A DNA stretch of 26,280 nt. Source: Candidatus Nanohalobium sp. (lineage in GTDB: Archaea > Nanohalarchaeota > Nanosalinia > Nanosalinales > Nanosalinaceae). This document shows, one piece after another, positions 1-26,280 of the stretch. The DNA lies in NCBI GenBank assembly GCA_042217545.1, contig JBDGSM010000080.1, positions 1 through 26,280 on the forward strand, written 5' to 3'. The position numbers were made by a program, and so were the translations under genes. Each line of letters opens with the position of its first letter. Within the stretch, counting starts at the first letter, position 1. The notes under the pieces are model-generated. The model did not search any database. It was not told where the DNA came from and saw only the letters and a program-made list of their open reading frames with translations.

Positions 1-1707
1 CACTCCGCAGCCCACGTCTTCGCACAGGCACTCAAACGCATCTACGGCGACCAGGTCAAGCTCACGATCGGGCCATGGACCGATGAAGGCTTCTACTACG
101 ACATCAAAGGAATCGACATAGAAGAAGAGGACTTCGAACAGATAGAAGAAGAGATGGAGAAGATCATCGAGGAAGACCTTCCGATCGAGCGGGAGATGAT
201 TCCACGAGAGGAAGCCGAGGAGTTCTTCGAGGACAACGAGTACAAGACCGAAATACTGAATGAAGAAGCAGGTGACGGAGATGAAGTAAGTTTTTACCGC
301 CAGGGAGAGTTCAGGGACCTGTGTAAAGGCCCTCACGTCTCGAGCACGGGCGAGATCGGAGGCTTCAAGCTTCTGGAGATCGCAGGCGCCTACTGGAGAG
401 GCGACGAAAACAACGAGATGCTGACAAGAGTCTATGGAACCGCATTCCCTTCCGAGTCGGAGCTCGAGGATTTCCTGGAGAAGAGAAGGGAAGCTGAAAA
501 AAGAGATCACAGAAGGATAGGCCAGGAGATGGATCTTTTCTCGATTCCAGAGTTTTCACCGGGCGGAGTTCATTTCCACCGTGAAGGCATGAAGATCCGC
601 CGAGAGCTGGAGGAATACATCCGGGAGAAAAACAAGGAGCTTGGCTACGAGGAGGTCTGGACGCCAGAACTGAACCACGCCGATCTCTGGAAGAAGACAG
701 GCCACTACGAGGCCTTCAAGGAGGAAGGTGAGATGTTCGCCTGGGAACAGGACGATACAGAGTACGGACTGAAGCCCATGAACTGTGCGAACCACTCCCA
801 TATCTTCGACTCCGGAAAACGCAGTTACAAGGAGCTGCCGATCAAGCTCTCCGAGTTCGGAACGGTAAACAGGAACGAACAGAGTGGAGAGCTTTCAGGC
901 CTTCTGCGTGTAAGGACTTTGACACAGGACGACGGCCACGCGTACATCAGGAAGGATCAGATCGAGGAGGAGATCAAGAAGCATCTACAGATCATAATCG
1001 AGATGTACGACGAGTTCGGCTTCGAGGTCAACTTCATCCTTGAGACAAAACCTCCTAAGGCGCAGGGACCGGACGAGCTATGGGATGAAGCCGAGAGCTC
1101 GCTGAAAAACGCTCTTGACGAGAAAGTAGATGACTACCAGATCAACGAGGAGGAAGGCGCGTTTTACGGGCCTAAGATCGGTGTCGAGGTAGAGGACGCG
1201 ATAGGAAGAGAATGGCAGCTCGGAACAGTCCAGCTCGACTTCGTCATCCCACGCAACTACGGGTTGAAGTACGTCGGGAAGGACAACGAGGAGCACTACC
1301 CGGTCATGATCCACAGAGCAATTTTAGGCTCGATAGAACGGTTCATGGGAGTCATGATCGAGCACTTCGCGGGAGACTTCCCAACATGGCTCGCACCAGA
1401 GCAGGTCAGGATCCTGCCGGTGACTGATGAGAACATAGATTATGCCGAGGAAGTGAAGGAGAAACTCTCAGAGTTCCGTGTCGAGATCGAGGACAGAAGC
1501 TGGACTGTCGGGAAGAAGATTCAGAACGCTCACGACGACAACGTTCCGTACATGCTGATCCTCGGAGACGACGAGGAAGAAGCAGAGAACCTCTCAGTAA
1601 GAGATAGACAGGAACGAGAAGACGGAGATGTCGATGTTGATGAGTTCTGTGAGCACCTGAAGTCAGAGGTCGAGGAGAAACGGCTTCGGCCGGACTTCTT
1701 GGAGTAA
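1..1707 (+). CDS. thrS: Threonyl-tRNA synthetase (bacterial-type editing domain), 5'-truncated by the window
   Basis: Frame is open from base 1 (HSAAHVFAQA...GFYYD), so the ATG at 154 is internal. Motifs: DLCKGPH, GAYWRGD, RDHRRIG, KPMNC, GAFYGPK, MIHRAILGSIERF, and a C-terminal anticodon-binding domain. Confidence 0.98.
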   Translation, partial: HSAAHVFAQALKRIYGDQVKLTIGPWTDEGFYYDIKGIDIEEEDFEQIEEEMEKIIEEDLPIEREMIPREEAEEFFEDNEYKTEILNEEAGDGDEVSFYRQGEFRDLCKGPHVSSTGEIGGFKLLEIAGAYWRGDENNEMLTRVYGTAFPSESELEDFLEKRREAEKRDHRRIGQEMDLFSIPEFSPGGVHFHREGMKIRRELEEYIREKNKELGYEEVWTPELNHADLWKKTGHYEAFKEEGEMFAWEQDDTEYGLKPMNCANHSHIFDSGKRSYKELPIKLSEFGTVNRNEQSGELSGLLRVRTLTQDDGHAYIRKDQIEEEIKKHLQIIIEMYDEFGFEVNFILETKPPKAQGPDELWDEAESSLKNALDEKVDDYQINEEEGAFYGPKIGVEVEDAIGREWQLGTVQLDFVIPRNYGLKYVGKDNEEHYPVMIHRAILGSIERFMGVMIEHFAGDFPTWLAPEQVRILPVTDENIDYAEEVKEKLSEFRVEIEDRSWTVGKKIQNAHDDNVPYMLILGDDEEEAENLSVRDRQEREDGDVDVDEFCEHLKSEVEEKRLRPDFLE

Positions 1708-1738
1708 CCAAAACTCCTCTTTTTTCTCTTAATATTTC

Positions 1739-2023
1739 TTATTCGTCAAATACCCTGTCCATCAGTTCATCTGAAGGTAGGTAGAAGTCCTGATCGCTGT
1801 AGAAATCGTTCTCATCGCTGTCTTTCACAGCTCCTAGCTCTTTGTACAGTTTCTCTTCTTGAAGCCAGTCATCCTTGATGGAATCGACAGGTAGGTAAGT
1901 CTGGGTCTTCAGTATCTCGAACAATCCTTGAGGCAGTCCTTCCTCTTTGAATTCCTCTCTGTCCATGTTGAACCTCTGGAGAACGGTTCTTATGGCGTTT
2001 ACAAGTTCCTGTTCCTCGTCCAT
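1739..2023 (-). CDS. Hypothetical acidic protein (94 aa)
   Basis: ORF with a GGAGG Shine-Dalgarno just upstream; last gene of a tight 3-gene minus-strand unit. Confidence 0.75.
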   Translation of the reverse strand: MDEEQELVNAIRTVLQRFNMDREEFKEEGLPQGLFEILKTQTYLPVDSIKDDWLQEEKLYKELGAVKDSDENDFYSDQDFYLPSDELMDRVFDE

Positions 2024-2035
2024 CGGTAACCTCCT

Positions 2036-2365
2036 CTAAATGTACTCTTCCAGTTCTTCACTGAAAACATACTTGGTGTTCTTCTCTTTGTACCAGACTG
2101 AGGATTCTGCTGGAAGCCCTACCAACCGGTTCTTGATTTCTTCAACTTCTCTCTCATCGAGAAGATTTTTTTCAAGAAGTTCATCCATCGCTCTCTGTAC
2201 CTCCTCGTTGGAGAAACCTTTCTTCAGCGTGAGAAGCTCCCAGATCTCGGCTCCAGCACCTTCACTATAAAGGTACTCTTCTATCTCATCTTCATCCAGT
2301 ATATTTTCTGTCAGTTCTCCGATAGATTCAAGGACTGAAACTGTTTCATCACTGAGTTCGGTCAT
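2036..2365 (-). CDS. Hypothetical acidic protein (109 aa), possible winged-helix
   Basis: ATGA overlap with the upstream gene at 2362-2365. IWELL...GFSNEEVQRAMDELLEKNLL resembles wHTH helices (weak). Confidence 0.7.
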   Translation of the reverse strand: MTELSDETVSVLESIGELTENILDEDEIEEYLYSEGAGAEIWELLTLKKGFSNEEVQRAMDELLEKNLLDEREVEEIKNRLVGLPAESSVWYKEKNTKYVFSEELEEYI

Positions 2366-3060
2366 ATCAGTTCCTCCTCGGATTCTTTGATGTAGTTCAC
2401 GATTTCATTATAGGTTTCGCGGTCAGGGTTGATAATCTCTTGGATATCCACATCGTTCTCCTCACGATACTGAGAAGCTGCATAAGCTGCTAATGTCTGC
2501 TCTCGGGAATCACGGTATTTGTGAAGAGCAGCTTTGAAATCTTCTTTTACCTGATCATCTTCGATCTCGTCAGCTGAGATTAACTGTTCGTAGAGGCCTC
2601 CTTCATCGGGCAGACCGTGCTCAACTGCTTCTTCCTGTTTTTCAAGAAAGTTCAACCTTGTTAAAGTGTAGGTCATTTTCTCTCCTCCGTCCACATTTAC
2701 TTCTCCTAGTATATCCTGTGCGGCGTGTGCTGCGAATTCTGCGTAGAGTCTTTGATCGAAAAGGTTGTCTCCGTATAGGTCTATTCCCTTGTTTTCGTAA
2801 TCTATCATCTCTGCATGGACGGTTTCATGCGCCAGATTCTCTGGCTGGAGTTCGCCGGCGGTGATGAGTACTTTTTCCCCGTTGATGAGGTCGACTTTGT
2901 TCTTGCTGGTATCTTTTGTATTGGTTACTTCATCTACCTCAACTTCTTCGTCTATAGCTCCTGGTTCAACTCGGTCAATTACCTCTGATGGCGTGATTCC
3001 TATAGCGTCTTCCACCAGTTGTTCGTCTTCTTCGGTTAAGCCAGGAAAAGAAACACTCAT
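2362..3060 (-). CDS. Hypothetical protein with HExxH zincin-like metallopeptidase motif
   Basis: LAHETVHAE motif with a downstream helical Glu (YAEFAA) as possible third zinc ligand. Confidence 0.7.
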   Translation of the reverse strand: MSVSFPGLTEEDEQLVEDAIGITPSEVIDRVEPGAIDEEVEVDEVTNTKDTSKNKVDLINGEKVLITAGELQPENLAHETVHAEMIDYENKGIDLYGDNLFDQRLYAEFAAHAAQDILGEVNVDGGEKMTYTLTRLNFLEKQEEAVEHGLPDEGGLYEQLISADEIEDDQVKEDFKAALHKYRDSREQTLAAYAASQYREENDVDIQEIINPDRETYNEIVNYIKESEEELI

Positions 3061-3141
3061 ATTGTTGCTATCGTTTTATCACAAATAAATTTGTTTTGGT
3101 TTTCAGGCCGACTGATTTAATCTTCAGTCCAAAAAACAGGA

Positions 3142-3195
3142 CATATGAAGGAAGAAGTAGAAGAGAAAAAGCTGAAGCCGGACTTCCTGGCCTAA
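3142..3195 (+). repeat. Diverged copy of the last 17 codons plus stop of thrS
   Basis: Encodes HMKEEVEEKKLKPDFLA* versus thrS 1654-1707 HLKSEVEEKRLRPDFLE* (12/17 aa and 39/54 nt identical by hand). Both copies are followed by a pyrimidine/T-rich tract. Confidence 0.85.
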
Positions 3196-3231
3196 GGCCT
3201 TCAACACCACACATCTCTTTCTTATTCTTTC

Positions 3232-4233
3232 TCAGTCACCTGTCATGCTCTCCATAGCAGCAGTACTTGCTTTCAGAGGTAGCAGCGAGGCCTCAGTCGC
3301 CGCACGCATATACGCCCTGAACGGGTCAGGCCTCCGGTAGGCTTCCTGTACAGATTCGAGGTCCTCGAAGCCTTCCGTGTACATCGAAGTCTCTCTGTAG
3401 CCTAAGGCCTTTTCATCCATTTCATCGCCATAGTCCACATGTATATCCCATTCAACTTCCACCTTCGGACCTTCCTCCAGTGTACCTGAGATCTCGAAGA
3501 CGAACTGCTCTGCTTCTCCCCAGTTCACAGGCCTGTAGGCCTCTATACTGTTTTCGATGAGGAGCTCGCCGTTCCTGACATCTCCCGGAGTGGAAAAGCT
3601 TCTTCCTACCGCCTGGTCGGCGAGTGCGGTCATGTAAGAGTTGTGGGCCTGGCCGTACTGTCCGCCGCCATCCAGGTACTCTGGCGTTATCTTTCCGGCG
3701 TTCAATGGTTCTTCTGTGTTTCCTGCGGGAAAGAGTGAGGCCCTGAAGCCTTCGGCCCCGTTATCAGATAGGACAACCTGGTCCGGATTCTCAGATGCGT
3801 AGACCATCTGAGTCCATTCACCCTTCAACGACCTGAGAGGCTTTTCCAGCTGCGGGACGAGCGCGTCCACGAAGCTCATGCCCTGGCTGACCACTACAGG
3901 TTCTTCCTGTACCGGTTCACGGACGAAAGGATATTTACCGGAGGTTGAAAGCTCTTCCACCACTTCTTTGCTCTGGTGAAGCAGATTTGCGTCGCCCGAG
4001 GCCTCAGAGTTTTTCTCCGCATCTTCTTCTGTTGGCGCAAGCCTTACTGCAGTCCATTCATCTGTTCCCCAGGTCTCGTATTCTAGGCCTTCCCTCCATT
4101 CCTCCCTGAGTTCGACTGCTTCATCCAGCTCCTGAGAAGTTATGGAGAAGTCCTGGGTTGCGTTTCCCTTCCAGGGAAAGGTTTCATCGTTTTTGCCTGT
4201 CGAGACATCTTCTGAGTCAGGCCTTGTAGCCAT
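3232..4233 (-). CDS. Putative hotdog-fold protein (MaoC-like hydratase motif plus a second thioesterase-like hotdog motif)
   Basis: PTEED...SGDANLLH...VVSQGM matches the MaoC SGDxNxxH...xGM pattern. YGQAHNSYMTALADQAVG resembles the PaaI-type G-x-x-HGG...L-x-D motif. Confidence 0.55.
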   Translation of the reverse strand: MATRPDSEDVSTGKNDETFPWKGNATQDFSITSQELDEAVELREEWREGLEYETWGTDEWTAVRLAPTEEDAEKNSEASGDANLLHQSKEVVEELSTSGKYPFVREPVQEEPVVVSQGMSFVDALVPQLEKPLRSLKGEWTQMVYASENPDQVVLSDNGAEGFRASLFPAGNTEEPLNAGKITPEYLDGGGQYGQAHNSYMTALADQAVGRSFSTPGDVRNGELLIENSIEAYRPVNWGEAEQFVFEISGTLEEGPKVEVEWDIHVDYGDEMDEKALGYRETSMYTEGFEDLESVQEAYRRPDPFRAYMRAATEASLLPLKASTAAMESMTGD

Positions 4234-4319
4234 TAGAATACTTTTTCTCCACTGAACAGGTTAAATCTTTTGGCATGAATGCCGGGATTTACATAAAGTT
4301 CCCTTCGTAAAAGACATCT

Positions 4320-4640: not shown

Positions 4641-4660
4641 CCCGGCGGGAGCGGGCCCTG

Positions 4661-6401: not shown

Positions 6402-7259
6402 ATGGACACCACTGTATCCGAAAAATACCTGAAGTACTTTCTGCCGGCAGCGGAGAAGCTGAAACCGGCAGTCCCATCCATAAAGAAGGATTTGAAAGGC
6501 GCGAGGATGGACATAGACCCAGATACGTATATAGCTAATTCTCTCGCCCGTGCTGTTCAGATCGGAGTTTCTCTAAGCGCTTCAATCGCTGTCGCAGGAT
6601 TTGTAATGCACCAGGACTTTATAATGAAGCTGGGAGCAGGCCTTCTACCATTGTTTACGCCTCTGCTCTTCCTGACGTTCGCCTACCGGCCAAAGATCAA
6701 GGCAAACAGGATTTCCCGGCAGCTGGAGAAAAATCTGCCTTATGCATTGCGACACATGCTTATCGAGGTAAGTTCCGGCGTATCAATGTACGAGGCGATG
6801 GTTGATGCATCTTACGATTACGGTGAGGCCTCACATGAGTTGAACAGGATCGTATCCGATATTCAGGGAGGTAAGTCGCAGATAAAGGCTCTGGAGGATT
6901 CTATTGGACGGAATCCAAGCATCATGTATCGGAGGGCGATCTGGCAGATGATCAACGCGTTGAAGTCGGGTGCAGATCTTACTGATACCTTGAATTCGCT
7001 TGTAGATACCATGGTTGAGGAGCAGAAGCTTGAAGTACAGAAGTACGGTGAGGATCTTAACCCGTTTATCCTTATGTACCTGATGCTTGCGGTTATATTT
7101 CCAAGCCTCGGAGTTACTTTAATGATCGTGATGTCGTCTTTCATCTCCCTGCCTCTCGGAAAGATGACTTTCTACGGCATGCTGGGTGGCCTGGCATTGT
7201 TCCAGCTATTCTTCCTGAACCTTGTGAAGTCCAAGAGGCCTGAGGTGAAGGCTGCATGA
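6402..7259 (+). CDS. Type IV pilus platform membrane protein (T2SS-F/TadB-TadC family)
   Basis: LEKNLPYALRHM...SGVSMYEAM...YGEASHEL...ALKSGADL T2SSF pattern flanked by TM helices. Confidence 0.9.
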   Translation: MDTTVSEKYLKYFLPAAEKLKPAVPSIKKDLKGARMDIDPDTYIANSLARAVQIGVSLSASIAVAGFVMHQDFIMKLGAGLLPLFTPLLFLTFAYRPKIKANRISRQLEKNLPYALRHMLIEVSSGVSMYEAMVDASYDYGEASHELNRIVSDIQGGKSQIKALEDSIGRNPSIMYRRAIWQMINALKSGADLTDTLNSLVDTMVEEQKLEVQKYGEDLNPFILMYLMLAVIFPSLGVTLMIVMSSFISLPLGKMTFYGMLGGLALFQLFFLNLVKSKRPEVKAA

Positions 7260-8269
7260 CTGTCCGGGAAAACATCTCGGTAAAGAACATGTACGAAGTG
7301 CTTCCAGACCGTTACAAGGATAAAGTGGAGCAGGAGGCACTTTATGCCGCCGTCGACGATAGAGTGGAGAAGCTTACGCTTTCAGGGCTTTTCGTAGGAT
7401 TCTTTGCTACGCTTGCGATGGTTCTGTACTTCGCTCCTTTCCCTATGCTTTTCACGGCAGCGGCAGCACTGATAGCAGCCCTGGTCGCAGGCCCTGCTAC
7501 TCCATACATGTATGTCTCGATCAAGGCGGAGAGGAGGAACAAGGAAATCGAGCAGATCCTGCCGGACGCGATGAGACTGGTAGGTGCGAACATCAAGTCA
7601 GGTCATACACTGGAGAAGGCCTTCCTGCTTTCAGCGAGGGATGAGTTCGGTCCTCTGGCAGACGAGATGCGGGATACCGCGATGGAAATCTACGGAGGGA
7701 AGCCGATCGAGGATGCGCTGAAGAATATGGAGGAGCGAATGAAGTCTGAGCTATTCCAGGAAACACTGAAGCTTCTGAGAGACGGTATAGAATCCGGTGG
7801 AGACACCGCAAAGCTCCTGGACTCGTCGGCGGATGATATAAGGAACTCCCTGGAGATCCGGGACGAGATCAAGTCCAGCATCAGGATGTACACCATCTTC
7901 ATCATGATGGCCTCGGTCGGAGGAGCACCGATACTGTTCTCAATCTCGACATACATGGCCAAGAAGACCACGAACATGTGGAGCCAGGCCAATATAGGAA
8001 GCATGGGCGGTCACGGGGTTGGAGGCGGTATGAGCCAGATAGGAGGGTTCAACATGTCTTTCTCAGCACCGGATGTCAACATCGCGATGTTCCAGCAGTT
8101 CGCAATGATGGCGATCATCTCCATCAACTTCTTCGCAGCCATGATAATCTCAGAAATCAGCAACGGCAACATCAAACAGGGAATCAAATACGTACCGGTA
8201 TTCATCATAATCTCGCTCCTCCTCTTCATCGGAGTCAAATCAGCCATCGCCGGAGCCATGGGTGGATGA
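7256..8269 (+). CDS. Type IV pilus platform membrane protein (T2SS-F/TadC family)
   Basis: IEQILPDAMRLVGANIKSGHTLEKA...EFGPLADE...GIESGGDTAKLL; ATGA overlap with the upstream paralog. Confidence 0.92.
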   Translation: MTVRENISVKNMYEVLPDRYKDKVEQEALYAAVDDRVEKLTLSGLFVGFFATLAMVLYFAPFPMLFTAAAALIAALVAGPATPYMYVSIKAERRNKEIEQILPDAMRLVGANIKSGHTLEKAFLLSARDEFGPLADEMRDTAMEIYGGKPIEDALKNMEERMKSELFQETLKLLRDGIESGGDTAKLLDSSADDIRNSLEIRDEIKSSIRMYTIFIMMASVGGAPILFSISTYMAKKTTNMWSQANIGSMGGHGVGGGMSQIGGFNMSFSAPDVNIAMFQQFAMMAIISINFFAAMIISEISNGNIKQGIKYVPVFIIISLLLFIGVKSAIAGAMGG

Positions 8270-8370
8270 TAGAAAACCCTGCAGATGTAACCCTGAAAGA
8301 GACAATGTTGCATGAACTGATGACAACACCACCTGCGGATGTATCGAAAACTAACCGATAGCCTTCTTCA

Positions 8371-8416
8371 AAAGGTTTTTTATAGGACTCAACCTAATTA
8401 GTTCTTGATTGGGTGA
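8371..8416 (+). promoter_or_regulatory. BRE/TATA box and Shine-Dalgarno of the major pilin gene
   Basis: AAAGG followed by TTTTATA (8378-8384); GGGTGA at 8411-8416 before the ATG at 8427. Confidence 0.65.
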
Positions 8417-8426
8417 CAAACCAACT

Positions 8427-8897
8427 ATGACAAAGAATTTTGACGTATTCGCAAAGCGAAAAGGTCAGTCAGCCATCGAGTACCTAATGACCTACGGATG
8501 GATGCTTCTCGTAGTAGCAATCGTAGGAGGAGCAATCTTCGCAACCGTCCAGGGTCAATGTACAGCATCCACATCAGGGTTCTCCACATCAGATGTCCGT
8601 ATCGCGGACTTCGGCCTGACCAACACAGGCCTGGGATTCGAAGTCAGAAATGCAGCAGCAGACCCAATCAGTGTTACAAACGTTTCCATCACTGACGGTT
8701 CTAAGACTGCATTCACAAACAGCAATGTGGACATCCCAGTCGGCTCAAGTAAAACAACCACAGCCGACCAGGGAGCTGGATTCAGCAACGTAGATGGATG
8801 TAATGACTTCGATGTACAGATTACCTACGACGTTCAGGGTGGCATTCAAAACCAGTCCGTCACAGGTTCACTGACCGACAGTATGTCGCTTACCTAA
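8427..8897 (+). CDS. Type IV pilin, probably the major pilin
   Basis: Class III signal peptide KRKG|QSAIEYLMTYGWMLLVV with E at +5, a Cys pair, and its own promoter, SD and terminator. Confidence 0.9.
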   Translation: MTKNFDVFAKRKGQSAIEYLMTYGWMLLVVAIVGGAIFATVQGQCTASTSGFSTSDVRIADFGLTNTGLGFEVRNAAADPISVTNVSITDGSKTAFTNSNVDIPVGSSKTTTADQGAGFSNVDGCNDFDVQITYDVQGGIQNQSVTGSLTDSMSLT

Positions 8898-8990: not shown

Positions 8991-10223
8991 TCAGTATGTA
9001 AGGCCTGTCATGTTCCACTGGTTTACGTGGTACTGGTCGAGGCGGAACCCTCTGCGGTATTCCCTGTCTCCATAGGCTTGGTCGCCGGTGACTCCGGCTA
9101 CTTTGGAGAGGCTGCCATAGTTTCCTGTCTGGTTGAAGTAAACGTATCCGACGTTGGACCTGTCTAGGTACTGGAGCTGGGGAGGGATCCTGGTCTTGTC
9201 AAGTACTGTCTCAATGCCCTGATTCTCACCTGGCTTCGAGGTAAGGCTGTTTTCCATCCTTTCAAGGATTCCTGGTCCAGGCCTGTTCCCGGATGATCTG
9301 AAGTAGCATCCTGTGTTCATGACCTGTCGAATGTGTGAGTTCCAGACCTGGTCCTGGTAGAGGATGATCATGTCTCCACTGTTTATCTTGTCGTATGTGT
9401 TCTGTGTGATTCCGAAGACGTACTTGGTGTTGTAGCCAGGATCAGTGCTGGATGTGGAGATCACTCCTGCATACCTGCTGGCTGTCGCCGAGTTTGGAGT
9501 GTTCTGTGTGTAAAGTATTTTTGTGCTTTTGTTGTTCGCACCAGGCCTTGCTGCTTCTCCGTATGTAGCTCCTGCGTTGTTGTAGTTTCCTGCGCCAATT
9601 TTCTCTGCCGGTGTGTCGAAGCTGCACGCTTTGTAGTTGTTGATGTATCTTTCACGGGTTCTCAGGAGGATCATGGTGTCCTCGTAGCCGTTCATGTTGA
9701 CCTGCTTGCTGTAGCTCGGTTCATGTTTGAACTCGGCCAGTGTGGTCGGGTCTTCAAGTTTTGTCGAGGCCTTGAGGTTTGAGACAAGGTCCAGGTATCT
9801 GTCCTCGAAGTTGAGCTGTGTGAAGTTAATCTGAAGCCTGTATCTTGACTCTTCCGCAGAGTCGATCACTCTTCTCCTCCAGGATTTCAGCGAGGAGTTT
9901 GCTGTCCCGTTGAGGCTCTGATTCTCGAATTTTCCTTCCAGAGTGCCGTTTTTCAAGGCCTCTTCCGGGTTTTTGAGCGCTTTTCCTTTTGCTACGATGT
10001 AGCCTATGGCGCTGGAGGCTGCTCTCCTGGATGCTATTCCCTGAGCTCTGTCAAGATCTTTCTGTACGTTTTTAAGGTAGTATGAGGCCTCTCCTATTCT
10101 GAAAGGGTTTTTTTCTGATGTGTAGCTTCCGTGGACGGTTGCTGTGAAGGTGAAGAGAAGTATGAGCAGGCTTGTAGCTATTATTGCAAATGTGGTGTAG
10201 ACCATTGCTTTTCTATTTTTCAC
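8991..10223 (-). CDS. Large minor pilin-like surface protein (410 aa)
   Basis: N-terminus MKNRKA|MVYTTFAII plus hydrophobic helix (class III-like); several N-x-S/T sequons; overlaps the adhesin stop codon. Confidence 0.75.
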   Translation of the reverse strand: MKNRKAMVYTTFAIIATSLLILLFTFTATVHGSYTSEKNPFRIGEASYYLKNVQKDLDRAQGIASRRAASSAIGYIVAKGKALKNPEEALKNGTLEGKFENQSLNGTANSSLKSWRRRVIDSAEESRYRLQINFTQLNFEDRYLDLVSNLKASTKLEDPTTLAEFKHEPSYSKQVNMNGYEDTMILLRTRERYINNYKACSFDTPAEKIGAGNYNNAGATYGEAARPGANNKSTKILYTQNTPNSATASRYAGVISTSSTDPGYNTKYVFGITQNTYDKINSGDMIILYQDQVWNSHIRQVMNTGCYFRSSGNRPGPGILERMENSLTSKPGENQGIETVLDKTRIPPQLQYLDRSNVGYVYFNQTGNYGSLSKVAGVTGDQAYGDREYRRGFRLDQYHVNQWNMTGLTY

Positions 10224-13200
10224 TCCAGATCACCAGTTTGACGTTTGCTGGCCCCCAGAGATGTGGCTGGTTGCCGAGTATGTTCTGGCTGTAGTCAAAG
10301 CTGCTTGAGTTGAGGTCTACTATCGGTTTGTTTCCATAGAGGGTTAGCTTGTCTTCAAGCCTGTTTTTTGCGTCTTTCTTGGCCGCGGTTTCGTTGGGGA
10401 AGAAGCCTCCGTATCCCACCGAGCTTGGTGCCTGGAGAGTGTAGTAGAATCTGTTGTCAGGGCTTGCTCCGCTTGGGTTGGAGGGTTTGAGTGCTGTGTC
10501 TATCCTGACCGTGTTGTTTCCGTTGATCAGTTTCTTCTCTGGTATATTGAGGATGAATGGGTCTCCAAGAGATGGATAGTCGTTGCCGTAGTTTGAGAGG
10601 TTGTAGAAGTACTGGAAGTTTCCTGAGTTGTTTATCAATGCTCTGTCTGTCCATTTTATCCCTGAGTAGGATGTGACTCTTGCGGATTTGACTGTTGATC
10701 CATTTGGTACATAGAAGCTTCCCTGTTTTGGCGAACTGACGTTCCCTCCGAACCTGTCGGATGAGAGCTGTAGACCTATCTTTCCGAACTTCAGGTTCTG
10801 TTTATCCGTGTAGTTGAAGGAGAGGTAGGAGTCCTGGTAAAGTCTTCCTTGGGCGTTCTTGTTGGCTGTATTTATCCTCTGGGCTACGAAGCTGGCGTTC
10901 AGGATGCTGTTGCTGATGTTTCTGAAAACCTGCTCCAGTTCGTTGGTGCCTGCAGAGTAAAACTTGCCTCCCCCACACTGAGCCGTCCTGTTCATCAGCT
11001 GGTTATCAGCTCCACTTCCAAAGGCCACGGTGTATACCTTGATGTCGTGGTTCTGGTAGGCTCTGCATGCCGCTTCTATGGTGTGATCATAAGCGTCCAC
11101 AGTTCCATCGTTGTTGTGGTCCGGTACGTTCTGCATCGAGGTCTTCACGTTAGGGGTTCCGTCCGACATCACGATCATCGACTTCTTCCTCTTCTGTGTC
11201 AGGTTGAGCGTGGCATCAAACTCCGCTGCCGACTTATTCACTCTGTATCTAACGTCGATAGAGTCAAGTCTAGGAGTGTTGAACTGATCCTGCGTATCCA
11301 TGGAAACATTGTACCTAAGTTTCTGGGAGTTAGGCACCTGGGAGATACTGTCATACCACTGGTTACCATCTGAGTAGTTTACATTGAAACTTGTCCCTGA
11401 AGGTGTGGAGTTCTGGATCTGGACGTTGCTCCAGTTCGCTTTCATCCCTGCATCGAACTGCTGGGACATGTAGCTGCCATTGCCATAAGCAGGCCTTCCA
11501 ACGTAGACCGAGTAATCCTCAACCTCATTCAGGTTAGGATCTTCACAGGTGGCAGTGTGGTAGCTTCCTTCCTCACCCATCACCCTCATCAATGTACTCC
11601 CTGAAGCAGCGCTCCGAGGAACATGGACCTCTGTCGATACAGTGCAGCCATTTGTACCACAGCTGCCGATTTCATGAGCTGTCTGATCGGCTATACTTCC
11701 GTCTCCATCCCAGTCAAATGCAACAGTAGCGTAATCATTGTTTCCACCTGTGTAAAAGCTGACATCTATAGTGTAATTTCTTCCAGGCACCATAACATCG
11801 GAGATACTATTCGTGGCATCCAGGTAACCGCCGTTGTCACCAGAGTTCCTGTTAATGCCGTTTATACTAACTGAATCCATGTATGTGCTGTAGCGGTATC
11901 TCCAAAACCAGGACCCGGCCCAGGAAGAAGTTGTACCTGAGACGCTGCAGTAGTTTCCTGCGTTCACATCCTGCTTCGTTCCTGTGTAAGAAGTAGTGTC
12001 CAGTTCAAGGCCTCCGCTTCTCTCCCTGGTCCCGCTGAAGCTTCCCTGGTTCCACTCACTGGAACCGTCCTTGGTCCAGTGCCTTGTGTCATAAGGCCTG
12101 TTCTTCAGTTTAACTCCAAGAATATTGTCACCTCTCCTTATCAGGCCTCCATCCGCATCGATCTCACGGTTCCAGTACTTCCCTGCGTGCCTTGAAGTAT
12201 CGTTGTCGATCACTTTACCGTTCAGGTATATCTTCGCGGCGTCATTGGAGAGCACTTTAAGTGAAACATTCTTGTAGATAGGGGATTTCATGTAAAATGT
12301 TTTTCTGAGGTAAACACTTCCATTGGACTTGTTCAGCTTTGTCTGTGAACGTGGAGTCGTTCCTATAATCGCCGACCCATTGTTCCAGGCCTGTGTGTCG
12401 TAGTCTGGCGACGTCCAATTCACTCCATTGTTTTTATCAGGCGTGGAGTTCAGATAATTCGTAGTATACTTCCATTCCGATCCCCTGCTGAAGATATGTT
12501 TGACATATCTGTCGTCGAGGACTTTGATAGCTCTGAGTATTCCGCAGCCTATGCAGGTGTTTCCACCAGCAGTCTGGGAGTTGATCATCTGCTTCAAAGA
12601 TTTATCATTCTTCGTAAGGTTATGGGCATCGACAATATCCTGATTATAGCTGACAAAACCCGCTCTGTTACCTGACGCATTGAGAATTATATCTACAAAT
12701 GTCTTCGAGGCATTCTGGGCCTTATCTATCTTACATGGTGGCCGCTGGAACCATCCGCACCCCATGCTGCCTGAGACGTCGACTACCGATACCGCATCGG
12801 CGATCGCCCCTATTATGACCTTTGTCTTGATGTTGCTGAGGCCTATCCTGAAGGGGACTGTTCTCCTGCTGATCCCTTTGTAGCTCATGTTTTTCTGCTG
12901 GAAATCGTTGAATATTGTCTGGTTGCTTATAGTCTTGGAGACCTCGCCTACCGTCTTGTTCTTGTATATAGTGGAGTTTCCGGCCTTGACGAACAGCGTC
13001 CTGTTCTGGGTGCTGTAGTGGATATGAGCTTTCACCCCTTTCAGGCTTCCAGGTACGTAGAAACTCGAGTAATAGTTTATAATCCCGTCTATACCCGGAA
13101 TGCGCTTTTCTTTACTGAGATACTTCCCGCTCCGAGAGTTCAACTGGTAGTTACGCCTGTAGTTTATCTCCATAAGGCCTCCTCGGATGCTCTTGTTTTC

Positions 13201-14534: not shown

Positions 14535-14926
14535 TTGATATACACCCCGCTACTGTTATGTAGGACTGTGAAACTTCGTTTGCTGCCCGTGTTAAACTGC
14601 AGGGTCCTGTTCCTGTAAAGCGTATCTCTTGTAACGAAGTTTTCCTGCCATCCAACGTAGACTGTGCGGTTTGCAACTTTGACTGTTATCTTGTCGGCAG
14701 CTATATCGGAAGGGAGTGAGAAAGTCCTAGAATAGCCTTCTCCCTGGACGAGTGCCATTTCTACCTGGAACGCTACGTTTTCAGCGACCTGTCCAGCTAT
14801 CTGCCTGTTCTGTCGTTCGAAGACATTTGACTGCTTCTGTGAGACTGCTCCAAAAAATATAGAAAGTATCGCCATAGAAAGTCCGAAAAGCAGGAAGAAC
14901 TCCATAGAGGTCTGTCCCTTAAGCAT
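14531..14926 (-). CDS. Minor type IV pilin
   Basis: MLKG|QTSMEFFLLF with E at +5; GEGYSRTFSLP; TGATG overlap with the upstream gene. Confidence 0.88.
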   Translation of the reverse strand: MLKGQTSMEFFLLFGLSMAILSIFFGAVSQKQSNVFERQNRQIAGQVAENVAFQVEMALVQGEGYSRTFSLPSDIAADKITVKVANRTVYVGWQENFVTRDTLYRNRTLQFNTGSKRSFTVLHNSSGVYIK

Positions 14927-15363
14927 CAGTTCACCACCGAGATATTAACCTGGCCGTTCCAGGCCACAACGGATACCTTTGAACTTCCGCTGCCATCAGG
15001 AAGGCCTCCAGGAGCAGATATGTTAGTATCGAAAACACGGGAGTAGTTGCTCTTCCCTGAACCTCTTCTCAGCGTATAAACTACTGCTCTATCCTGTATG
15101 ATACGTGCAGCGACCACCCTGTCCGGCAGTTCCATGCGGAAAGTTCTTCTTGACGGCTCTCCCGCCACGCTGACCGTGCTGACTGCTTCATCCAGTCTAT
15201 CAAGTGATTTCTGGATAGATACTGAAGTAGAGGTCTGCTGGATATTCAGAACTGATTTCTGCGCACTCAGGATGAACGGCGTGGAGACAGCAAGAGCTAT
15301 GCCCACGACCATCAGGAACTCCACGGAGGACTGTCCCTTTCCTGAGAAAAAGGCCTTTGTCAC
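14926..15363 (-). CDS. Minor type IV pilin
   Basis: KG|QSSVEFLMVVGIAL. The likely start is GTG 15363 (MTKAFFSGKGQ), 26 nt below a TATTTTAA box (15396-15389), rather than 15423. Confidence 0.85.
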   Translation of the reverse strand: MTKAFFSGKGQSSVEFLMVVGIALAVSTPFILSAQKSVLNIQQTSTSVSIQKSLDRLDEAVSTVSVAGEPSRRTFRMELPDRVVAARIIQDRAVVYTLRRGSGKSNYSRVFDTNISAPGGLPDGSGSSKVSVVAWNGQVNISVVN

Positions 15364-15476
15364 AGTATACAATACGGGAGACGCTGGGTTAAAATACAAC
15401 AGGGAGGAAGAGGCCTCTGCCACCTCTCAATGATAACGTCCTTTTTATATGGCGGGAGGCGGAATGTTCATTTATT

Positions 15477-18047
15477 ATGGAGAACGTTCTCTGGTTCGAA
15501 AACATTACCGCAGATGATACAGACAAAGTCGGAGGAAAAAGCGCAAATCTTGGAGAGCTGAGCAATGAGGTGGACGTACCTGTTCTGCCAGGCTACGCCA
15601 CGACGGCAGATGCCTACGATAGCTTTATACATGATACAGATCTGAGAGATAAACTTGAGAGGCTTCTGGACGGTCTTGATACCGATGATGTCAACGATCT
15701 TCAGAGGCGTGGCGAACAGATCCGCTCCCATATAAAGGAGGCGGATATGCCCGAAGATCTGAGGGAGAGCTTCGTTGAGGCCTACGAACAGCTTGAAGAG
15801 AAACTGGGAGTTGACAACCCGGAAGTAGCTGTTCGTTCATCGGCGACTGCCGAGGATCTGCCAGGATCTTCTTTCGCAGGCCAGCAGGAGACCTATCTGA
15901 ATGTACAGGGCAAGCAGGATCTGATCAAGAGGATCAAGGACTGCTATGCCTCGCTGTTTACGAACCGTGCTATCAGCTACCGTGAGGACAAAGGCTTCAA
16001 CCACTTTGATGTGAAGCTGAGCGCAGTGGTCCAGAAGATGGGACGCTCGGATATCGGAGCCGCGGGAGTAATGTTCACACTCGACCCAGACTCAGGTTTC
16101 GACAACGTTGTAACGATCAACGGCAGCTACGGCCTGGGAGAGTACGTCGTCCTGGGAGAGGTCAACCCGGACGAGTTCACAGTCTTCAAGGAGAACATAG
16201 GCATAATAGAGAAAAAACTTGGCGATAAAGAGATCAAGCTGGTCAGAGACGACGAGAACGATGACAACGATAACAAGGAGGAGAAAGTTCCTCAAGAGGA
16301 CCGGGAAAAGTTCTGCATAACAGATAACCAGGTGCAGGAACTGGCCAAGTACGCCCTTGAGATTGAGGACCACTACGGAAAGCCAATGGATATCGAATGG
16401 GTTTTCGATGGTCAGACCAAGGAACTTTACATTGTCCAGGCAAGGCCTGAGACGGTTCAGGCGGAGAAGGATGAGAACATAATAGAGGACTACAAGCTGG
16501 AGGAAGAATCCGAGGTAGTCCTTGAAGGAGAGGCCATCGGCTCGAAGATCGGGAACGGTACGGCACATGTTCTCAACAGTCCGAAGCAGATCGACCAGTT
16601 CGAGGAGGGAGAAGTACTTGTAACAGACATGACCGATCCTGACTGGGAGCCGATCATGAAAAAAGCAGGCGCCATTATCACCAACAAGGGAGGCCGTACC
16701 TCCCACGCAGCAATTGTCTCCAGGGAACTCGGCGTTCCTGCAGTCATCGGAACAGAGAACGCGACTTCCCAGCTCAAGGACGGACAGGACGTAACAGTTG
16801 ACTGCTCATCCTCCACAGGAAAGGTGTGGGACGGAGAACTCAACTTCGAGGTAAACGAACATCACCTGGGTGAGATACCGGACACCGAGACCGACGTACA
16901 GGTAAACATCGGAGAGCCGAGCGAGGTATTCCATGTCGCCCAGCTACCGGTAGAAGGAGTAGGCCTCGCAAGAGAAGAGTTCATAATATCTTCACATGTA
17001 GGTGAACACCCACTGAAGCTTATCGAGGAAGGCCGTGAGGACGAGTACGTTGAGGCCCTTAGAAGTGGTATCGGAAAGATTGGCGCAGCTTTCTATCCTG
17101 ACCAGGTAGTAGTCCGTCTAAGCGACTTCAAATCAGATGAGTACGCAGAACTGAAAGGCGGGGAGGACTACGAGCCAGATGAGGCGAACCCTATGCTCGG
17201 TTTCAGGGGCGCCTCCCGTTACTACGATGAAGAGTTCCAGAAGGCCTTTGAACTGGAATGTAAGGCCCTGCGCCAGGCCATCGACGACCTGGAACTTGAC
17301 AACCTGACCATCATGGTTCCGTTCTGCCGTACGATCGAGGAAGGGAAGAACGTCCGTGCGAAGATGAAAGAGTACGGCCTGGACGAAGGCGATATAGAGG
17401 TCTACGTCATGGCCGAGATCCCGGCAAACATTGTGAGAGCTGAGGATTTCTCGGAGGTCTTCGACGGCTTCAGCATCGGAACCAACGACCTGACACAGCT
17501 CACTCTGGGCGTGGACAGGAACTCGGACAAGCTTTCCGAGATCTTTGATGAGAGAGATCCCGCAGTCAAGGAATCTGTCAGGACGCTGATTGAGAAAGCA
17601 CATAGAAAGGATAGACACGTGGGCATCTGTGGAGACGCACCAAGCACACATGACGGCTATGCAAAATTCCTTGTGGACCAGGGAATAGATGCTATCTCGG
17701 TCTCACCAGATGTAGCACTGGAAACCATCCTGAAGGTAGCAGACGCTGAGGAAGAACGTGGAGAAATCGACCACAGCTCAGGCAGCGAGGCCTCCAAATC
17801 AGTGGATGTTGATGTCCAGCAGCTTGACTCTCTTTCAGTAGAAGAGATCGGGCAGTCCGCAGGCGAAGTCTACGAGACACTGAACAAGCACGGCAAAGCT
17901 ACCGCTTCAAAGCTCAAGGAGTACACGGACGACCTTGACTCGGAGAAAGTGATGAATCAGGCCCTTGGATGGCTCGCCAGGGAAGGAAAGATAGAAGTAG
18001 AAGTAAAGAAGAACGGTGAAATGAAGTACCGGCTTGAATCCGAGTAA
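15477..18047 (+). CDS. ppsA: Phosphoenolpyruvate synthase with a C-terminal wHTH extension
   Basis: VGGKSANLGE, VAVRSSATAED, SFAGQQET, DIEW, QARPET, GGRTSHAAI (catalytic His), EANPMLGFRG, SIGTNDLTQ, GICG. Confidence 0.97.
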   Translation: MENVLWFENITADDTDKVGGKSANLGELSNEVDVPVLPGYATTADAYDSFIHDTDLRDKLERLLDGLDTDDVNDLQRRGEQIRSHIKEADMPEDLRESFVEAYEQLEEKLGVDNPEVAVRSSATAEDLPGSSFAGQQETYLNVQGKQDLIKRIKDCYASLFTNRAISYREDKGFNHFDVKLSAVVQKMGRSDIGAAGVMFTLDPDSGFDNVVTINGSYGLGEYVVLGEVNPDEFTVFKENIGIIEKKLGDKEIKLVRDDENDDNDNKEEKVPQEDREKFCITDNQVQELAKYALEIEDHYGKPMDIEWVFDGQTKELYIVQARPETVQAEKDENIIEDYKLEEESEVVLEGEAIGSKIGNGTAHVLNSPKQIDQFEEGEVLVTDMTDPDWEPIMKKAGAIITNKGGRTSHAAIVSRELGVPAVIGTENATSQLKDGQDVTVDCSSSTGKVWDGELNFEVNEHHLGEIPDTETDVQVNIGEPSEVFHVAQLPVEGVGLAREEFIISSHVGEHPLKLIEEGREDEYVEALRSGIGKIGAAFYPDQVVVRLSDFKSDEYAELKGGEDYEPDEANPMLGFRGASRYYDEEFQKAFELECKALRQAIDDLELDNLTIMVPFCRTIEEGKNVRAKMKEYGLDEGDIEVYVMAEIPANIVRAEDFSEVFDGFSIGTNDLTQLTLGVDRNSDKLSEIFDERDPAVKESVRTLIEKAHRKDRHVGICGDAPSTHDGYAKFLVDQGIDAISVSPDVALETILKVADAEEERGEIDHSSGSEASKSVDVDVQQLDSLSVEEIGQSAGEVYETLNKHGKATASKLKEYTDDLDSEKVMNQALGWLAREGKIEVEVKKNGEMKYRLESE

Positions 18048-18056
18048 AAAGGCCTT

Positions 18057-18476
18057 TTACCGGAAACTTATCACTTTTTCTTTTACCTTCTTCCCGTTGT
18101 GCTGGACTTCAACAATGTATCTGCCGCCCGGAATTACGTCGGTGTGCGCTCTGTACTCTGCAAGGCCCAGACACTGGTTTACATAGTCCGTAGGCTGCTT
18201 TCCGTCTTCTGCCTTCACGTTCAGCAGTATTTCTCCGTCCGATACCTTGTACGTGTAGGAGAGATCGGATTCTGTGTTGTTGATAGGGAACTGTCCTTCA
18301 AAAGTAAGTCTTTTCCCGTTAGGATGAACCCCTATGTTCGATGCTTCCTTCCTGTTGTACCTGCACGCCGTCTCCAAATCTGTGAAGTTTATACCTGCTG
18401 CGGTTTGATTTCCTAGAAGGATTAACGCTATTCCGATAACGACCAGAGTTCCTGCTGCCCCCCAAAACTTTGACAT
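18057..18476 (-). CDS. Hypothetical secreted or membrane-anchored protein
   Basis: N-terminal hydrophobic helix, two Cys, beta-rich body. Confidence 0.75.
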   Translation of the reverse strand: MSKFWGAAGTLVVIGIALILLGNQTAAGINFTDLETACRYNRKEASNIGVHPNGKRLTFEGQFPINNTESDLSYTYKVSDGEILLNVKAEDGKQPTDYVNQCLGLAEYRAHTDVIPGGRYIVEVQHNGKKVKEKVISFR

Positions 18477-18588
18477 GGTTACTCTTGGGCAGTAAATTGT
18501 TTTAAACTCTTTGGAGTGACAATTCAGGCCTCAGTGGTCGCCTCTAATTGATAGGATTTATTAACATCTACCGGATAATACTTAAACA

Positions 18589-22679: not shown

Positions 22680-22712
22680 AACAATTGAATTATAAGAAGT
22701 TACAGATTTAAA

Positions 22713-23921: not shown

Positions 23922-23931
23922 TTTATTCCAC

Positions 23932-24285: not shown

Positions 24286-24447
24286 AATTTGGTCTCTTAT
24301 CGTTTAAAATGTGCTTTCCAGCATTCAAAAGTTGTACCTGAAGTATTTAATACCTTTCGGTAACAACGGATGGAGTTTTGGGCGGATTTTTGTATGCCTC
24401 CACAGATCCCTGACGGCATCCGCTTCAACAATATCTGCTAATGGGTT

Positions 24448-24566
24448 TGGGTCCGCCCAGATTCGAACTGGGGATCTTCGCCTCACTCACTCACTCGTGC
24501 TTGATATCAGCGCTCCACACGATGCGGCTGTAAGGGCGACGTCATAACCAACTAGACCACGGACCC
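24448..24566 (-). tRNA. tRNA-Val(TAC) with a 45-nt intron (24484-24528) at position 37/38; CCA not encoded
   Basis: Acceptor GGGTCCG/CGGACCC-A, D arm GTC...GAC, anticodon stem TCGCC/GGCGA with CT-TAC-A, T arm CCCAG-TTCGAAT-CTGGG. Bulge-helix-bulge helix CTTA/TGAG. Confidence 0.95.
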
Positions 24567-24641
24567 GTTAAACTACCTGCAACACTACATGAGTGTGTTA
24601 ATACTTTAAACTCCATGTTTTAAGAGCGTACTTCAAAGGCC

Positions 24642-26280
24642 TTAACCGACCTCTTTCTCCAGCACAGGATCGTAAACCGTCTCGTTATCCGAGAAGTAAG
24701 GATAGTAAACCCGTGATACAGAGGCCTCATCAAGTCTTGAAGCTGCTTCTCCCTCGGAGACCTCGTAGCCAATCAGCGATTCCTCCTCCACAACCTGATC
24801 ATCGACGCCTACATCGAATATAGACTCGGTTAACTCGTTATCAGCGTTGATAAGGCCTTTATCCTGGAGATCCTGGAGCTTAGAGGCGATCTTGGAGACC
24901 TGGAGGCCTGTCTCATCCACAATCTCGCTCTTCGACCTTCCATCGGCGATAAGATCCAGTATCTTCCTGTCCTGGCCTTCAACTTTTGCCTTCTCCGCCT
25001 TGACCTGGTCTTTTACGCCGTCGACGAGAATCTTCTTCTCGGAGTTCTCCACAAGGTACAGCGGGTACCAGGCCTCGGAGATACTGTTTCCGAGATCCTG
25101 CTTGACCTCGTTGAGAGATCTCTGCGGCTTGAAGGCCTTTATGCTTTCCTTTTCAACGTAGTTCTCGGAAGTCTGTGTCTCTCCGCCGTGCTGGCTATTC
25201 CTCTGCCTTACATCCGTCATGACAGGGTAGTCGTTGCCGAGGACGAAGGAAACTCCGGGAGGCAGGGACTTGATCATGTCCTCCACTTCCGAGGTGATGC
25301 CTTCGAAGGATTTGGAAATTGCCTTCAGGTCGTTCGGGTTGGTCACCCTCAGAATGAACTGGGTGTTGCACTGGCTCAGCACGTTCTTGTCGATCCTTGC
25401 AGGCCTCTGACTGATTACTCCGAGGCCTAACCCGAACTTTCTTCCTTCCGACGCGATCTTTCTGAGTATAGGGTTTGATACGGCCTGGCCGAATCCTTTC
25501 TCCGGTACGAAGTTGTGGGCCTCCTCCATCACCATCAGGAACGGAGGAACCATGTCCTTCTTCCTCAGGTCGAACAGTTTCTTCGCCAGCATGTAGGCCG
25601 TCATCTCTGCTGCATCCGGTTCGACAGCTTTCAGGTTGATAACGGTTGCCTGACCTGGTTCAAGCAGATCCGTGAGGTCGACAGGGTTCGGGTCGAAGAG
25701 GCCTGACTCCTCTAACTGCTCCAGATAGTTCAGGAGATTCCATTTCGCGGTTGAGTCCTCCTGGGAGACCGCATCCTCTATGTCCAGTAAAGTATAGTCC
25801 TGATCTTTCTCCTTCAACCGTTTCAATGAGTTATAGAGCACTCCCATCTGCGAGTTGGTTAGAGAGTCCGGGATCAGCGTCATCAGTTCTTTCTTCCCCA
25901 GGTTCTTCGAGGAGAACTGGAGAGGCATAGCTTCGGAGTTGATGTCCGTGTTCGGCGAGTACTCCTTCACAGGATAGCCTCTGGCTTCGGGATCGCCGTT
26001 CTCCGGGTTAGGCCTTTTTAGGGAGGAGAATTCGCCGTGAGGATCCAGAATCATCACCGGGAAGTCCTGCTCCAGCAACTCTTCTACCAGGACGCCCGTA
26101 AGATAGCTGTTATGCGATACAATGCCTCCTGTGCCAGCAACGAAGTTGTGGTGCTCCCTAACGGTTAAATCATAAACGTAGCCAGCGTAATCTTTCTCTT
26201 CAATCGAGACTACCTTGTCCCAGTAGAGGTCAGAGCTAGCGAGATCTCTGAATAACTCGCTGTCAAGTTCTTCAGCCATA
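24642..26280 (-). CDS. HerA/DUF87-like ATPase with intein, 5'-truncated by the window
   Basis: SYLTGVLVEEL (after Walker A), ILDPHGEF, VMEEAHNF (Walker B), EGRKFGLG, SQRPA, LSQCNTQ; HTH-like C-terminal region. Confidence 0.9.
   Translation of the reverse strand, partial: MAEELDSELFRDLASSDLYWDKVVSIEEKDYAGYVYDLTVREHHNFVAGTGGIVSHNSYLTGVLVEELLEQDFPVMILDPHGEFSSLKRPNPENGDPEARGYPVKEYSPNTDINSEAMPLQFSSKNLGKKELMTLIPDSLTNSQMGVLYNSLKRLKEKDQDYTLLDIEDAVSQEDSTAKWNLLNYLEQLEESGLFDPNPVDLTDLLEPGQATVINLKAVEPDAAEMTAYMLAKKLFDLRKKDMVPPFLMVMEEAHNFVPEKGFGQAVSNPILRKIASEGRKFGLGLGVISQRPARIDKNVLSQCNTQFILRVTNPNDLKAISKSFEGITSEVEDMIKSLPPGVSFVLGNDYPVMTDVRQRNSQHGGETQTSENYVEKESIKAFKPQRSLNEVKQDLGNSISEAWYPLYLVENSEKKILVDGVKDQVKAEKAKVEGQDRKILDLIADGRSKSEIVDETGLQVSKIASKLQDLQDKGLINADNELTESIFDVGVDDQVVEEESLIGYEVSEGEAASRLDEASVSRVYYPYFSDNETVYDPVLEKEVG
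26109..26280 (-). mobile_element. C-terminal part of an intein
   Basis: DLYWDKVVSIE...YVYDLTV...HNFVAG (block F) and IVSHN|S (block G His-Asn followed by Ser +1 at 26108). Confidence 0.93.

Follow-up and report, generated by a model that had tools for sequence, protein, structure and literature searches.

Why should one six-base palindrome, AGGCCT, recur so densely along a stretch of nanohaloarchaeal DNA? The stretch in question comes from Candidatus Nanohalobium sp. (assembly GCA_042217545.1, contig JBDGSM010000080.1, positions 1 to 26,280; hereafter the window, meaning all 26,280 bases) and carries exactly 80 copies, dispersed between 710 and 26015 without strand at 3.0/kb. Dinucleotide shuffles of the window hold 7.5 ± 3.1 copies (maximum 19), and none of 100 reaches 80, which amounts to an excess of about 11-fold. 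The first-pass annotation, made from the sequence by eye, had put the number at about 80 and the enrichment at roughly 12-fold; both estimates agree with the counts, and a copy is present at all 17 coordinates that it quoted. Its further claim, that copies lie in genes of either strand, in every frame and also between genes, likewise agrees with the gene calls, which place 74 of the 80 copies in genes (26 in plus-strand and 48 in minus-strand genes; 18, 23 and 33 in the three frames) and six outside them, two of these in the 5' stretch of an open reading frame (ORF) with a late-called start. The candidate reader that we arrive at is an AddAB-like helicase-nuclease, of which AGGCCT may be the Chi-like signal.

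The excess is a property of the whole genome rather than of the window. The source genome (G000 in the labels that we use for genomes, contigs and loci) has 3,699 copies in 1,032,751 bases (3.6/kb), present on 82 of 82 contigs at 1.3–5.9/kb, and no other hexamer is as over-represented under Markov models of order 1 or order 2, where AGGCCT has observed/expected ratios (O/E) of 13.0 and 5.1 respectively. A general surplus of GGCC is ruled out as the cause: order-2 O/E is 0.3–0.6 for TGGCCA, CGGCCG, GGGCCC, AGGCCA and AGGCCG, and no GGCC hexamer is enriched save AGGCCT and AGGCCC/GGGCCT, the O/E of AGGCCC being 1.6. An assembly artefact is unlikely because the same richness is seen in 13 genomes. 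Public contigs show 0 differences from the window in long pieces, although these contigs may be the assembly's own source, and long contigs of two runs that hold the window stretch contain no strain variants. G000 also strongly avoids CTAG (O/E 0.24), CTAA, CCAA and AATT.

Inspection of coding sequence reveals a force that acts on DNA. Genes were called with a custom hexamer-score script (1,190 in G000), and all gene-level counts inherit its errors. Synonymous shuffles within the genes of G000 predict 613 copies where 3,187 are observed, and the excess persists in each frame (131, 210 and 272 shuffled versus 545, 1,069 and 1,573 observed); between genes the density is 4.1/kb. Overall, 69% of the positions at which synonymous choice could produce AGGCCT (opportunities) are filled in G000, versus 8–11% expected, the three frames giving 534/702, 1,029/1,699 and 1,559/2,155. 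A second AGGCCT-rich genome, G003, is filled to a similar extent (638/755, 1,339/1,879 and 1,534/2,138); the corresponding values are 49/499, 89/1,054 and 151/1,499 in an AGGCCT-poor relative, G068, and 63/198, 75/426 and 140/584 in 326 kb of G034. The shuffles and the opportunity fill together rule out an artefact of codons or amino-acid pairs. Neither outcome that the first-pass annotation had named as refuting, a ratio near 1 under such controls or confinement to the window, is seen. Protein sequence has shifted as well, since aligned orthologues hold about 50% more opportunities in rich genomes than in G068 (1,702 versus 1,117 and 1,372 versus 912), where the opportunity counts of five control palindromes differ by at most 7%.

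Enrichment is found in 13 of the 70 genomes of the phylum, all of them in four genera of one family, for which 50 genomes (13 rich and 37 poor) were compared. Twelve rich genomes have about 2.0–4.7 copies/kb and G034 (39% GC) about 1/kb, with genome sizes rounded. An RpoA' tree of 29 genomes, with the partial G004 dropped, unites the four rich genera with g19 and g20; the clade so formed has 19 rows (100/99) and lacks resolution at its base; g20 and g19 are each represented by one genome, G021 and G020. Genus g2 is mixed, with two rich and four poor genomes. Poor G068 keeps a 1.5–1.7-fold excess, which suggests that AGGCCT has been lost there and is decaying, and G065 has the highest count among poor genomes (892 versus 547 for the control). 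In G017, G018 and G021 (L001, L002), AGGCCT, AGGCCG and AGGCCC are all strongly avoided (55–97 AGGCCT per Mb); G017 and G021 encode closely scoring C5 methylases of 338–340 aa, and the avoidance in these three genomes possibly reflects a GGCC restriction-modification system.

The shape of the word offers a first clue to its reader. Log-odds shifts, fitted to opportunities with no other site within 50 bp, are for AGGCCT, AGGCCC, AGGCCA and AGGCCG respectively 3.72, 1.57, 0.68 and 0.37 in G000; 4.09, 2.35, 1.10 and 1.24 in G003; and 3.19, 2.39, 1.94 and 1.92 in genus g18 (61 kb), against 0.62, −0.18, 0.27 and 0.07 in the poor control G068. Words altered at both ends stay at −0.4 to 0.2 in G000 and G003 and at 0.7–0.8 in g18, and inner variants of AGGCCT fall between −0.3 and 0.6, the same as in G068. 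Across the family, AGGCCC over its reversed control is 0.83–3.96 in the 13 rich genomes and at most 0.74 in the 37 poor ones, and AGGCCG is raised 1.7–3.0-fold in three of three g18 genomes and only there. The core of the word thus appears to be asymmetric and five bases long, with AGGCCC at about half the strength of AGGCCT and inner variants near control. Half strength for AGGCC followed by A, C or G fits a one-strand reading of AGGCC(Y>R), where Y is a pyrimidine and R a purine, with the palindrome read twice. The base preferred at −1 varies by genome (A in G000, G in G003), and the AGGCCT shift in G034, at 1.9, reaches about half the value seen in the remaining rich genomes.

Spacing provides a second clue. 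Close pairs of AGGCCT are under-represented, with 88, 128 and 137 of them in 15-bp bins versus about 195, and a logistic fit to 8,098 opportunities in G000 and G003, from which those with a neighbor beyond 700 bp or a sequence end were dropped, gives a neighbor penalty of −2.1 at 6–10 bp, about −0.9 to −1.1 at 10–26 bp, −0.4 at 26–42 bp, −0.2 at 50–75 bp and nil beyond 100 bp. The best-fitting decay is exponential with a length of 20–25 bp (up to 40 bp for the tail alone); smooth decay beats a step (negative log-likelihood 3960 versus 3989 or more), and neither a residual gap-length term nor clear helical phasing (z about 2) is seen. Opportunities far from neighbors are filled at 0.75; one neighbor lowers this to 0.54, and two lower it to 0.36 (n = 33). 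The shift falls likewise, from about 3.5 far from neighbors to 2.6 when one neighbor lies within 30 bp and 1.8 when two do (n = 33 for the latter). In effect, a single neighbor takes away about half of the bias over a range of 20–40 bp. Half-sites also avoid neighboring full sites; inner variants do not.

Which gene product, then, accompanies the word? The first-pass annotation had pictured an archaeal system akin to the highly iterated palindromes (HIPs) of cyanobacteria, served for example by a GGCC/AGGCCT methyltransferase. The DNA-level, frame-independent half of that idea stands, being upheld by shuffles, frames and spacers alike. The methyltransferase half is not supported, for no methylase common to the rich genomes was found: a C5 methylase occurs in one of 13 (none of the four single-contig ones), a Dam-type methylase in none of 13, and a clear DNA-methylase match of N4/N6 type in one of six searched. 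A motif scan found no DNA amino-methylase in G000 and two of restriction-modification size in G003; the sole N6/N4 match in G000 resembles, by reading of its sequence, a tRNA methyltransferase. It is in poor genomes with a C5 methylase, G017 and G021 for example, that GGCC words are scarcest.

The candidate that fits best was absent from those earlier guesses. A gene-profile comparison of G000, G003 and the incomplete G068, to which targeted searches were added, returned 142 entries present in G000 and G003 and absent from G068; 56 were annotated and nine profiled across genomes. Seven of the nine failed, and the two that passed are adjacent genes for a PD-(D/E)XK protein (B-like) and a UvrD helicase-nuclease (A-like). 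Excluded candidates include Nre, winged-helix, ribbon-helix-helix and Ogt/ATL-type proteins, all of which occur in poor G069, a Rad50-like gene absent from rich G019 and G022, and YgjP and an HhH-GPD orthologue, each absent from rich G022.

In G000 the pair is found outside the window, the A-like gene at C17:39063-41795 (910 aa) and the B-like gene at C17:41792-44359 (855 aa). The B-like gene occurs in 29 of 50 family genomes, namely 13 of 13 rich genomes, none of the four poor g2 genomes and 16 of the 33 other poor ones; the A-like gene occurs in 27 of 50 (13 of 13 rich, 14 of 37 poor) and follows the same pattern in g2. Frame length sharpens the contrast. The AddA frame is 888–945 aa in all 13 rich genomes, whereas in eight of the 14 poor carriers it is 758–777 aa, two of these adding a second frame of about 1,000 aa; the other six poor carriers have frames of 911–937 aa. 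Because the nuclease domain maps to about aa 798–903 of the A subunit, the short frames, judged by length, likely lack it. Within the six genera of the clade, a full-length pair is present in 13 of 13 rich and one of 11 poor genomes: five of the 11 have neither gene, one has a B fragment only, four have only a 758–774-aa AddA frame, and G065, the single poor genome counted, has a short frame plus one of 1001 aa. Four further poor genomes, reached via loci, lack the B gene; they are possible duplicates and were left out of these counts. In G034, C16 (L141) and C5 (L130) carry two divergent AddB-like genes, with 142 of 398 aligned residues identical.

The predicted proteins resemble AddAB in architecture. 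An AlphaFold model of the G000 B subunit, built on an 88-row alignment, has a predicted local distance difference test score of 87.6 and a predicted template modeling score of 0.62. Its top five Foldseek matches are B. subtilis AddB (E 1e-11 to 3e-10), and VIA aligns it with AddB 4cej_B over nearly its whole length (Z 18.1, root-mean-square deviation 6.3, 673 aligned); AdnA comes within about 1 Z of AddB, and UvrD and RecC rank after. On this model, and with no Walker A in its sequence, the B subunit is predicted to combine an inactivated helicase fold with a nuclease. The A subunit has UvrD motifs and a PD-(D/E)XK tail, with Walker A and nuclease motifs visible, and the G003 orthologues have UvrD and PDDEXK_1 domains. 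By sequence the relationship is distant: the B subunit has no NCBIfam match and no PDB sequence match, and the pair falls below all NCBIfam AddA/AddB cut-offs, pieces of the A subunit scoring 115 and 58 against a cut-off of 708. An iron-sulfur staple is a feature of AddB; the B subunit has only three scattered cysteines and hence no such staple. Columns that separate five rich from two poor B subunits number 37, from too few rows to interpret. Homologues with the same two-gene order, a PD-(D/E)XK nuclease and an ATP-dependent helicase, occur on Halobacteria plasmids (35–40% identity to the B subunit among the 25 of 35 plasmid matches listed). AGGCCT is scarce around the plasmid pair (1, 1 and 0 copies per 18.6 kb versus about 5.5 expected), meaning that the word does not come with the gene family by itself.

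We favor, with a probability of about one half, the reading that AGGCCT would be a Chi-like stop signal of this AddAB-like enzyme, spreading by biased repair. The B subunit would recognize 5'-AGGCC(Y>R), or the complement of this word, on a single strand, and the score of AGGCCT would be double because both strands carry the word. Recognition would halt the nuclease of the A subunit, the AddA-type nuclease being the one that is silenced at Chi. In repair between chromosome copies or with exchanged DNA, an allele without a site would be chewed past and replaced while a site-bearing allele would be kept, a form of molecular drive; multiple chromosome copies or DNA exchange, the premise of this step, are a haloarchaeal trait. 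The destructive phase would be short, with a mean of about 25 bases, such that only a nearby neighbor would cancel the push coming from its side, and a naturally leaky Chi switch could give the short reach that the model needs. Loss of the pair, or of the A-subunit nuclease, would turn the drive off and leave sites to decay. In a toy simulation, half of the push comes from each side and the site reached first prevails; with a 25-bp reach it reproduces the spacing curve, a match that is not independent because its parameters came from the same spacing data.

Such a signal would have close bacterial counterparts. In the accessible text of one report, an inactive helicase domain of B. subtilis AddB scans single-stranded DNA for Chi (AGCGG), and an AddB latch mutant passes to the Chi-modified form without Chi (PMC4824097). 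The nanohaloarchaeal pair is like B. subtilis AddAB/Chi and E. coli RecBCD/Chi in being a two-gene superfamily 1 helicase-nuclease with a B subunit that is predicted to be helicase-like and inactive, and its core word, like B. subtilis Chi (5'-AGCGG), appears five-base and asymmetric. It differs in its archaeal host, its palindromic dominant word, the filling of about 70% of opportunities, the lack of evident strand skew and neighbor effects that are over by about 60–100 bp. A 2026 preprint states, in its available part, that archaea lack AddAB and that no Chi has been identified in them (10.64898/2026.05.08.723854).

Several observations weigh against this reading. The pair is not sufficient, for the B-like gene occurs in 16 and the A-like gene in 14 of the 37 poor genomes; full-length AddA is present in eight poor genomes (G005, G011, G013, G014, G030 and G073, and as second copies in G027 and G065), and seven poor genomes outside the clade retain a long AddA frame. 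There are only two to three independent contrasts, on a one-gene tree. The poor g2 genomes are 77–89% complete, G068 lacks whole blocks, and a clean deletion could not be shown by synteny. Only nine of the 142 candidate entries were profiled, and the other 133 could hold an equal fit. Nor do poor genomes that carry the B-like gene reveal a signal of their own: no second motif of similar strength was seen in 3–18 kb samples of 11 of them, a scan that left out G005 and G014 and that missed AGGCCT in three of seven positive controls. No replacement hyper-abundant word was found in poor G068, in loci L057-L063 or in small samples of B-like-carrying poor genomes.

The polarity of the word and its range raise further difficulties. 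Avoidance of full sites by half-sites is not one-sided (−0.66 ± 0.15 versus −0.44 ± 0.14, z = −1.1), and no strand skew of AGGCCC is evident by eye along G003. A symmetric dimer with a tolerant outer position could also yield a half-strength single variant. Bacterial AddAB resects processively over kilobases until it meets Chi, which the short range seen here does not fit. With a reach of 300 or 2,000 bp the toy simulation gives a rising curve, which the spacing data reject, so the short reach is an added assumption. Finally, one preprint argues, in the text available, that codon usage accounts almost fully for E. coli Chi (10.1101/2021.07.08.451572), which on that account would mean that known Chi sites show no such drive.

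The strongest alternative, though in our view an unlikely one, is that AGGCCT is the site of a double-strand DNA-binding protein with a role in chromatin or segregation, kept by weak selection with redundancy within a footprint. A palindrome suits a dimer, the exclusion is two-sided and at 20–40 bp is footprint-sized, G000 has three histone-like genes, and a role in chromosome structure has been proposed for the cyanobacterial palindrome HIP1 (in the available text of PMC5861425). Yet a neighbor costs about half of the bias along a smooth decay, where a footprint would suggest a step, and clear helical phasing is lacking. At the kilobase scale, the top power of 33.5 in one complete rich genome is below the 95% permutation limit of 34.8 (10–90 kb, by a simple spectrum on that one genome and not by the published HIP1 method). 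Opportunities shared by G000 and G003 are both filled beyond chance, with an odds ratio of 4.3, which would suit selection on position; five control palindromes, however, span 0.6–3.5, some of them reaching 2.3–3.5. Poor genomes also contain the winged-helix and ribbon-helix-helix candidates that were profiled, and the pattern of AddA lengths is left without explanation.

Quite unlikely is a tag for DNA uptake or transfer, whereby site-bearing fragments would be preferentially imported and recombined. The raised level of encoded peptides, seen in the roughly 50% rise in opportunities over the orthologues of the poor relative, would suit such a tag, as would the pilin-like and Tad-like ORFs (named by inspection) and the HerA-like ATPase of the window. 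Against it, DprA is absent from all five genomes tested, four of them rich, no candidate receptor was found, and redundancy over 20–40 bp would require very short fragments.

We consider very unlikely a short-patch repair ratchet that works without AddAB, in which a site-specific nicking or mismatch enzyme would protect the site-bearing strand within about 25 bases. The neighbor range fits a short patch, and NucS/EndoMS is near-universal (46 of 50 family genomes). NucS does not track AGGCCT richness. No inner one-off variant is specifically drained, and synonymous divergence shows no drop within 40 bp of shared sites (0.51–0.55 versus 0.50–0.55 further off; 56 sites, low power), nor any dip around shared sites in a saturated genome pair. 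Methylation-directed repair at a GGCC/AGGCCT methyltransferase site, which would make and keep the word as in Elhai's HIP model and has a precedent in the matching methylases that accompany cyanobacterial alternate HIPs (in the accessible part of PMC4390886), is scarcely credible beside the methylase searches above.

Other abundant words bear comparison with AGGCCT. Like HIP1 (GCGATCGC) and the alternate HIPs, it is a short palindrome found in any frame, in and between genes, and patchily among relatives. In contrast to HIP1, it is a hexamer at 2–4.7/kb (sizes rounded) rather than at most 2.73/kb, has an archaeal host, an apparent one-strand core and no matching methylase found, and lacks a significant 10–90 kb period in the one complete genome examined. 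Neisseria and Pasteurellaceae uptake sequences are longer and non-palindromic, unlike AGGCCT, and the absence of DprA from the genomes tested here sets the systems further apart. What they share with AGGCCT is thousands of copies and a reshaped proteome, the uptake word about doubling its encoded peptides in the part of PMC2817400 available. An alternate HIP of Synechococcus sp. PCC 6312, CAGGCCTG, itself contains AGGCCT (0.37/kb, O/E 14.7; accessible text of PMC5861425). The string AGGCCT does not appear in the main text of two nanohaloarchaeal methylome papers, an archaeal restriction-modification survey or a 2026 HIP1 paper, and a literature search found no paper on AGGCCT in nanohaloarchaea, although supplementary oligomer or methylome tables could hold it.

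Within the window, whose ORFs are acidic and archaeal in character and whose lineage, going by the names of homologues, belongs to the nanohaloarchaea, the one-strand variants occur throughout (1..26280) as 20 AGGCCC/GGGCCT, 17 AGGCCA/TGGCCT and 14 AGGCCG/CGGCCT, which we read as half-strength sites from the genome-wide fits. Intergenic copies of AGGCCT lie at 3195..3200 and 18526..18531, and another at 18050..18055 falls between the stop codons of convergent genes (15477-18047, plus strand; 18057-18476, minus strand). Two copies 8 bases apart at 3529..3542 exemplify the close pairs that are under-represented genome-wide. The longest stretch free of the word, about 1.7 kb at 903..2593, takes in two small acidic ORFs as well as the first ORF's 3' half. 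A copy at 24637..24642 coincides with the stop of a HerA-like ATPase ORF (24642-26279, minus strand), which carries an intein's C-terminal end, has a winged-helix-like stretch at its own C terminus and is cut by the contig end. By inspection, Tad-like and pilin-like ORFs at 6402-8897 (plus strand) form a set with 8991-15423 (minus strand); the two regions together hold two Tad-like membrane proteins and one pilin-like ORF, and the set includes a row of pilin-like ORFs that surrounds a 1,270-aa protein bearing a vWA-like motif.

Elsewhere in G000, an 8,305-aa ORF (C9:32587-57504) has the size reported for nanohaloarchaeal giant surface proteins, and the histone-like genes lie at C21:8179-8803, C21:26787-26984 and C56:3104-3301, one of them adjoining a small winged-helix gene. 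Two contigs of G068, C1 and C2 (L099, L100, L185-L191; 166 kb), have no close genes in common with G003 and resemble large halovirus contigs binned with the genome; several palindromes are avoided on them (AGGCCT 6, TCCGGA 1, ACGCGT 0). A viral contig of 10.1 kb, L239, contains 27 AGGCCT in addition to the three that were searched for, about 9 times what its composition predicts, and its proteome is not acidic. Among 81 of 121 viral loci longer than 2 kb (a scan of 12 of 64 parts), none is an AGGCCT-enriched contig with a strongly acidic proteome.

We know of no demonstrated cause for HIP-type palindromes despite decades of their study. The nanohaloarchaeal case brings together, all in 1-Mb genomes, a saturated word, close relatives without it and a named candidate of two genes that also occurs in naturally shortened forms. 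In its fullest version, which we advance only tentatively, AGGCCT would be the first archaeal Chi: an AddAB-like enzyme shared with haloarchaeal plasmids would read AGGCC(Y), repair alone would have filled about 70% of opportunities and rewritten the proteome, and loss of the enzyme or its nuclease would end the drive. For the rich clade, AGGCCT is also a practical binning marker. If the reading is true, HIP-type palindromes would have a methylase-free route by which to arise, and a repair enzyme acting alone would have inscribed its signal genome-wide and in the encoded proteins.

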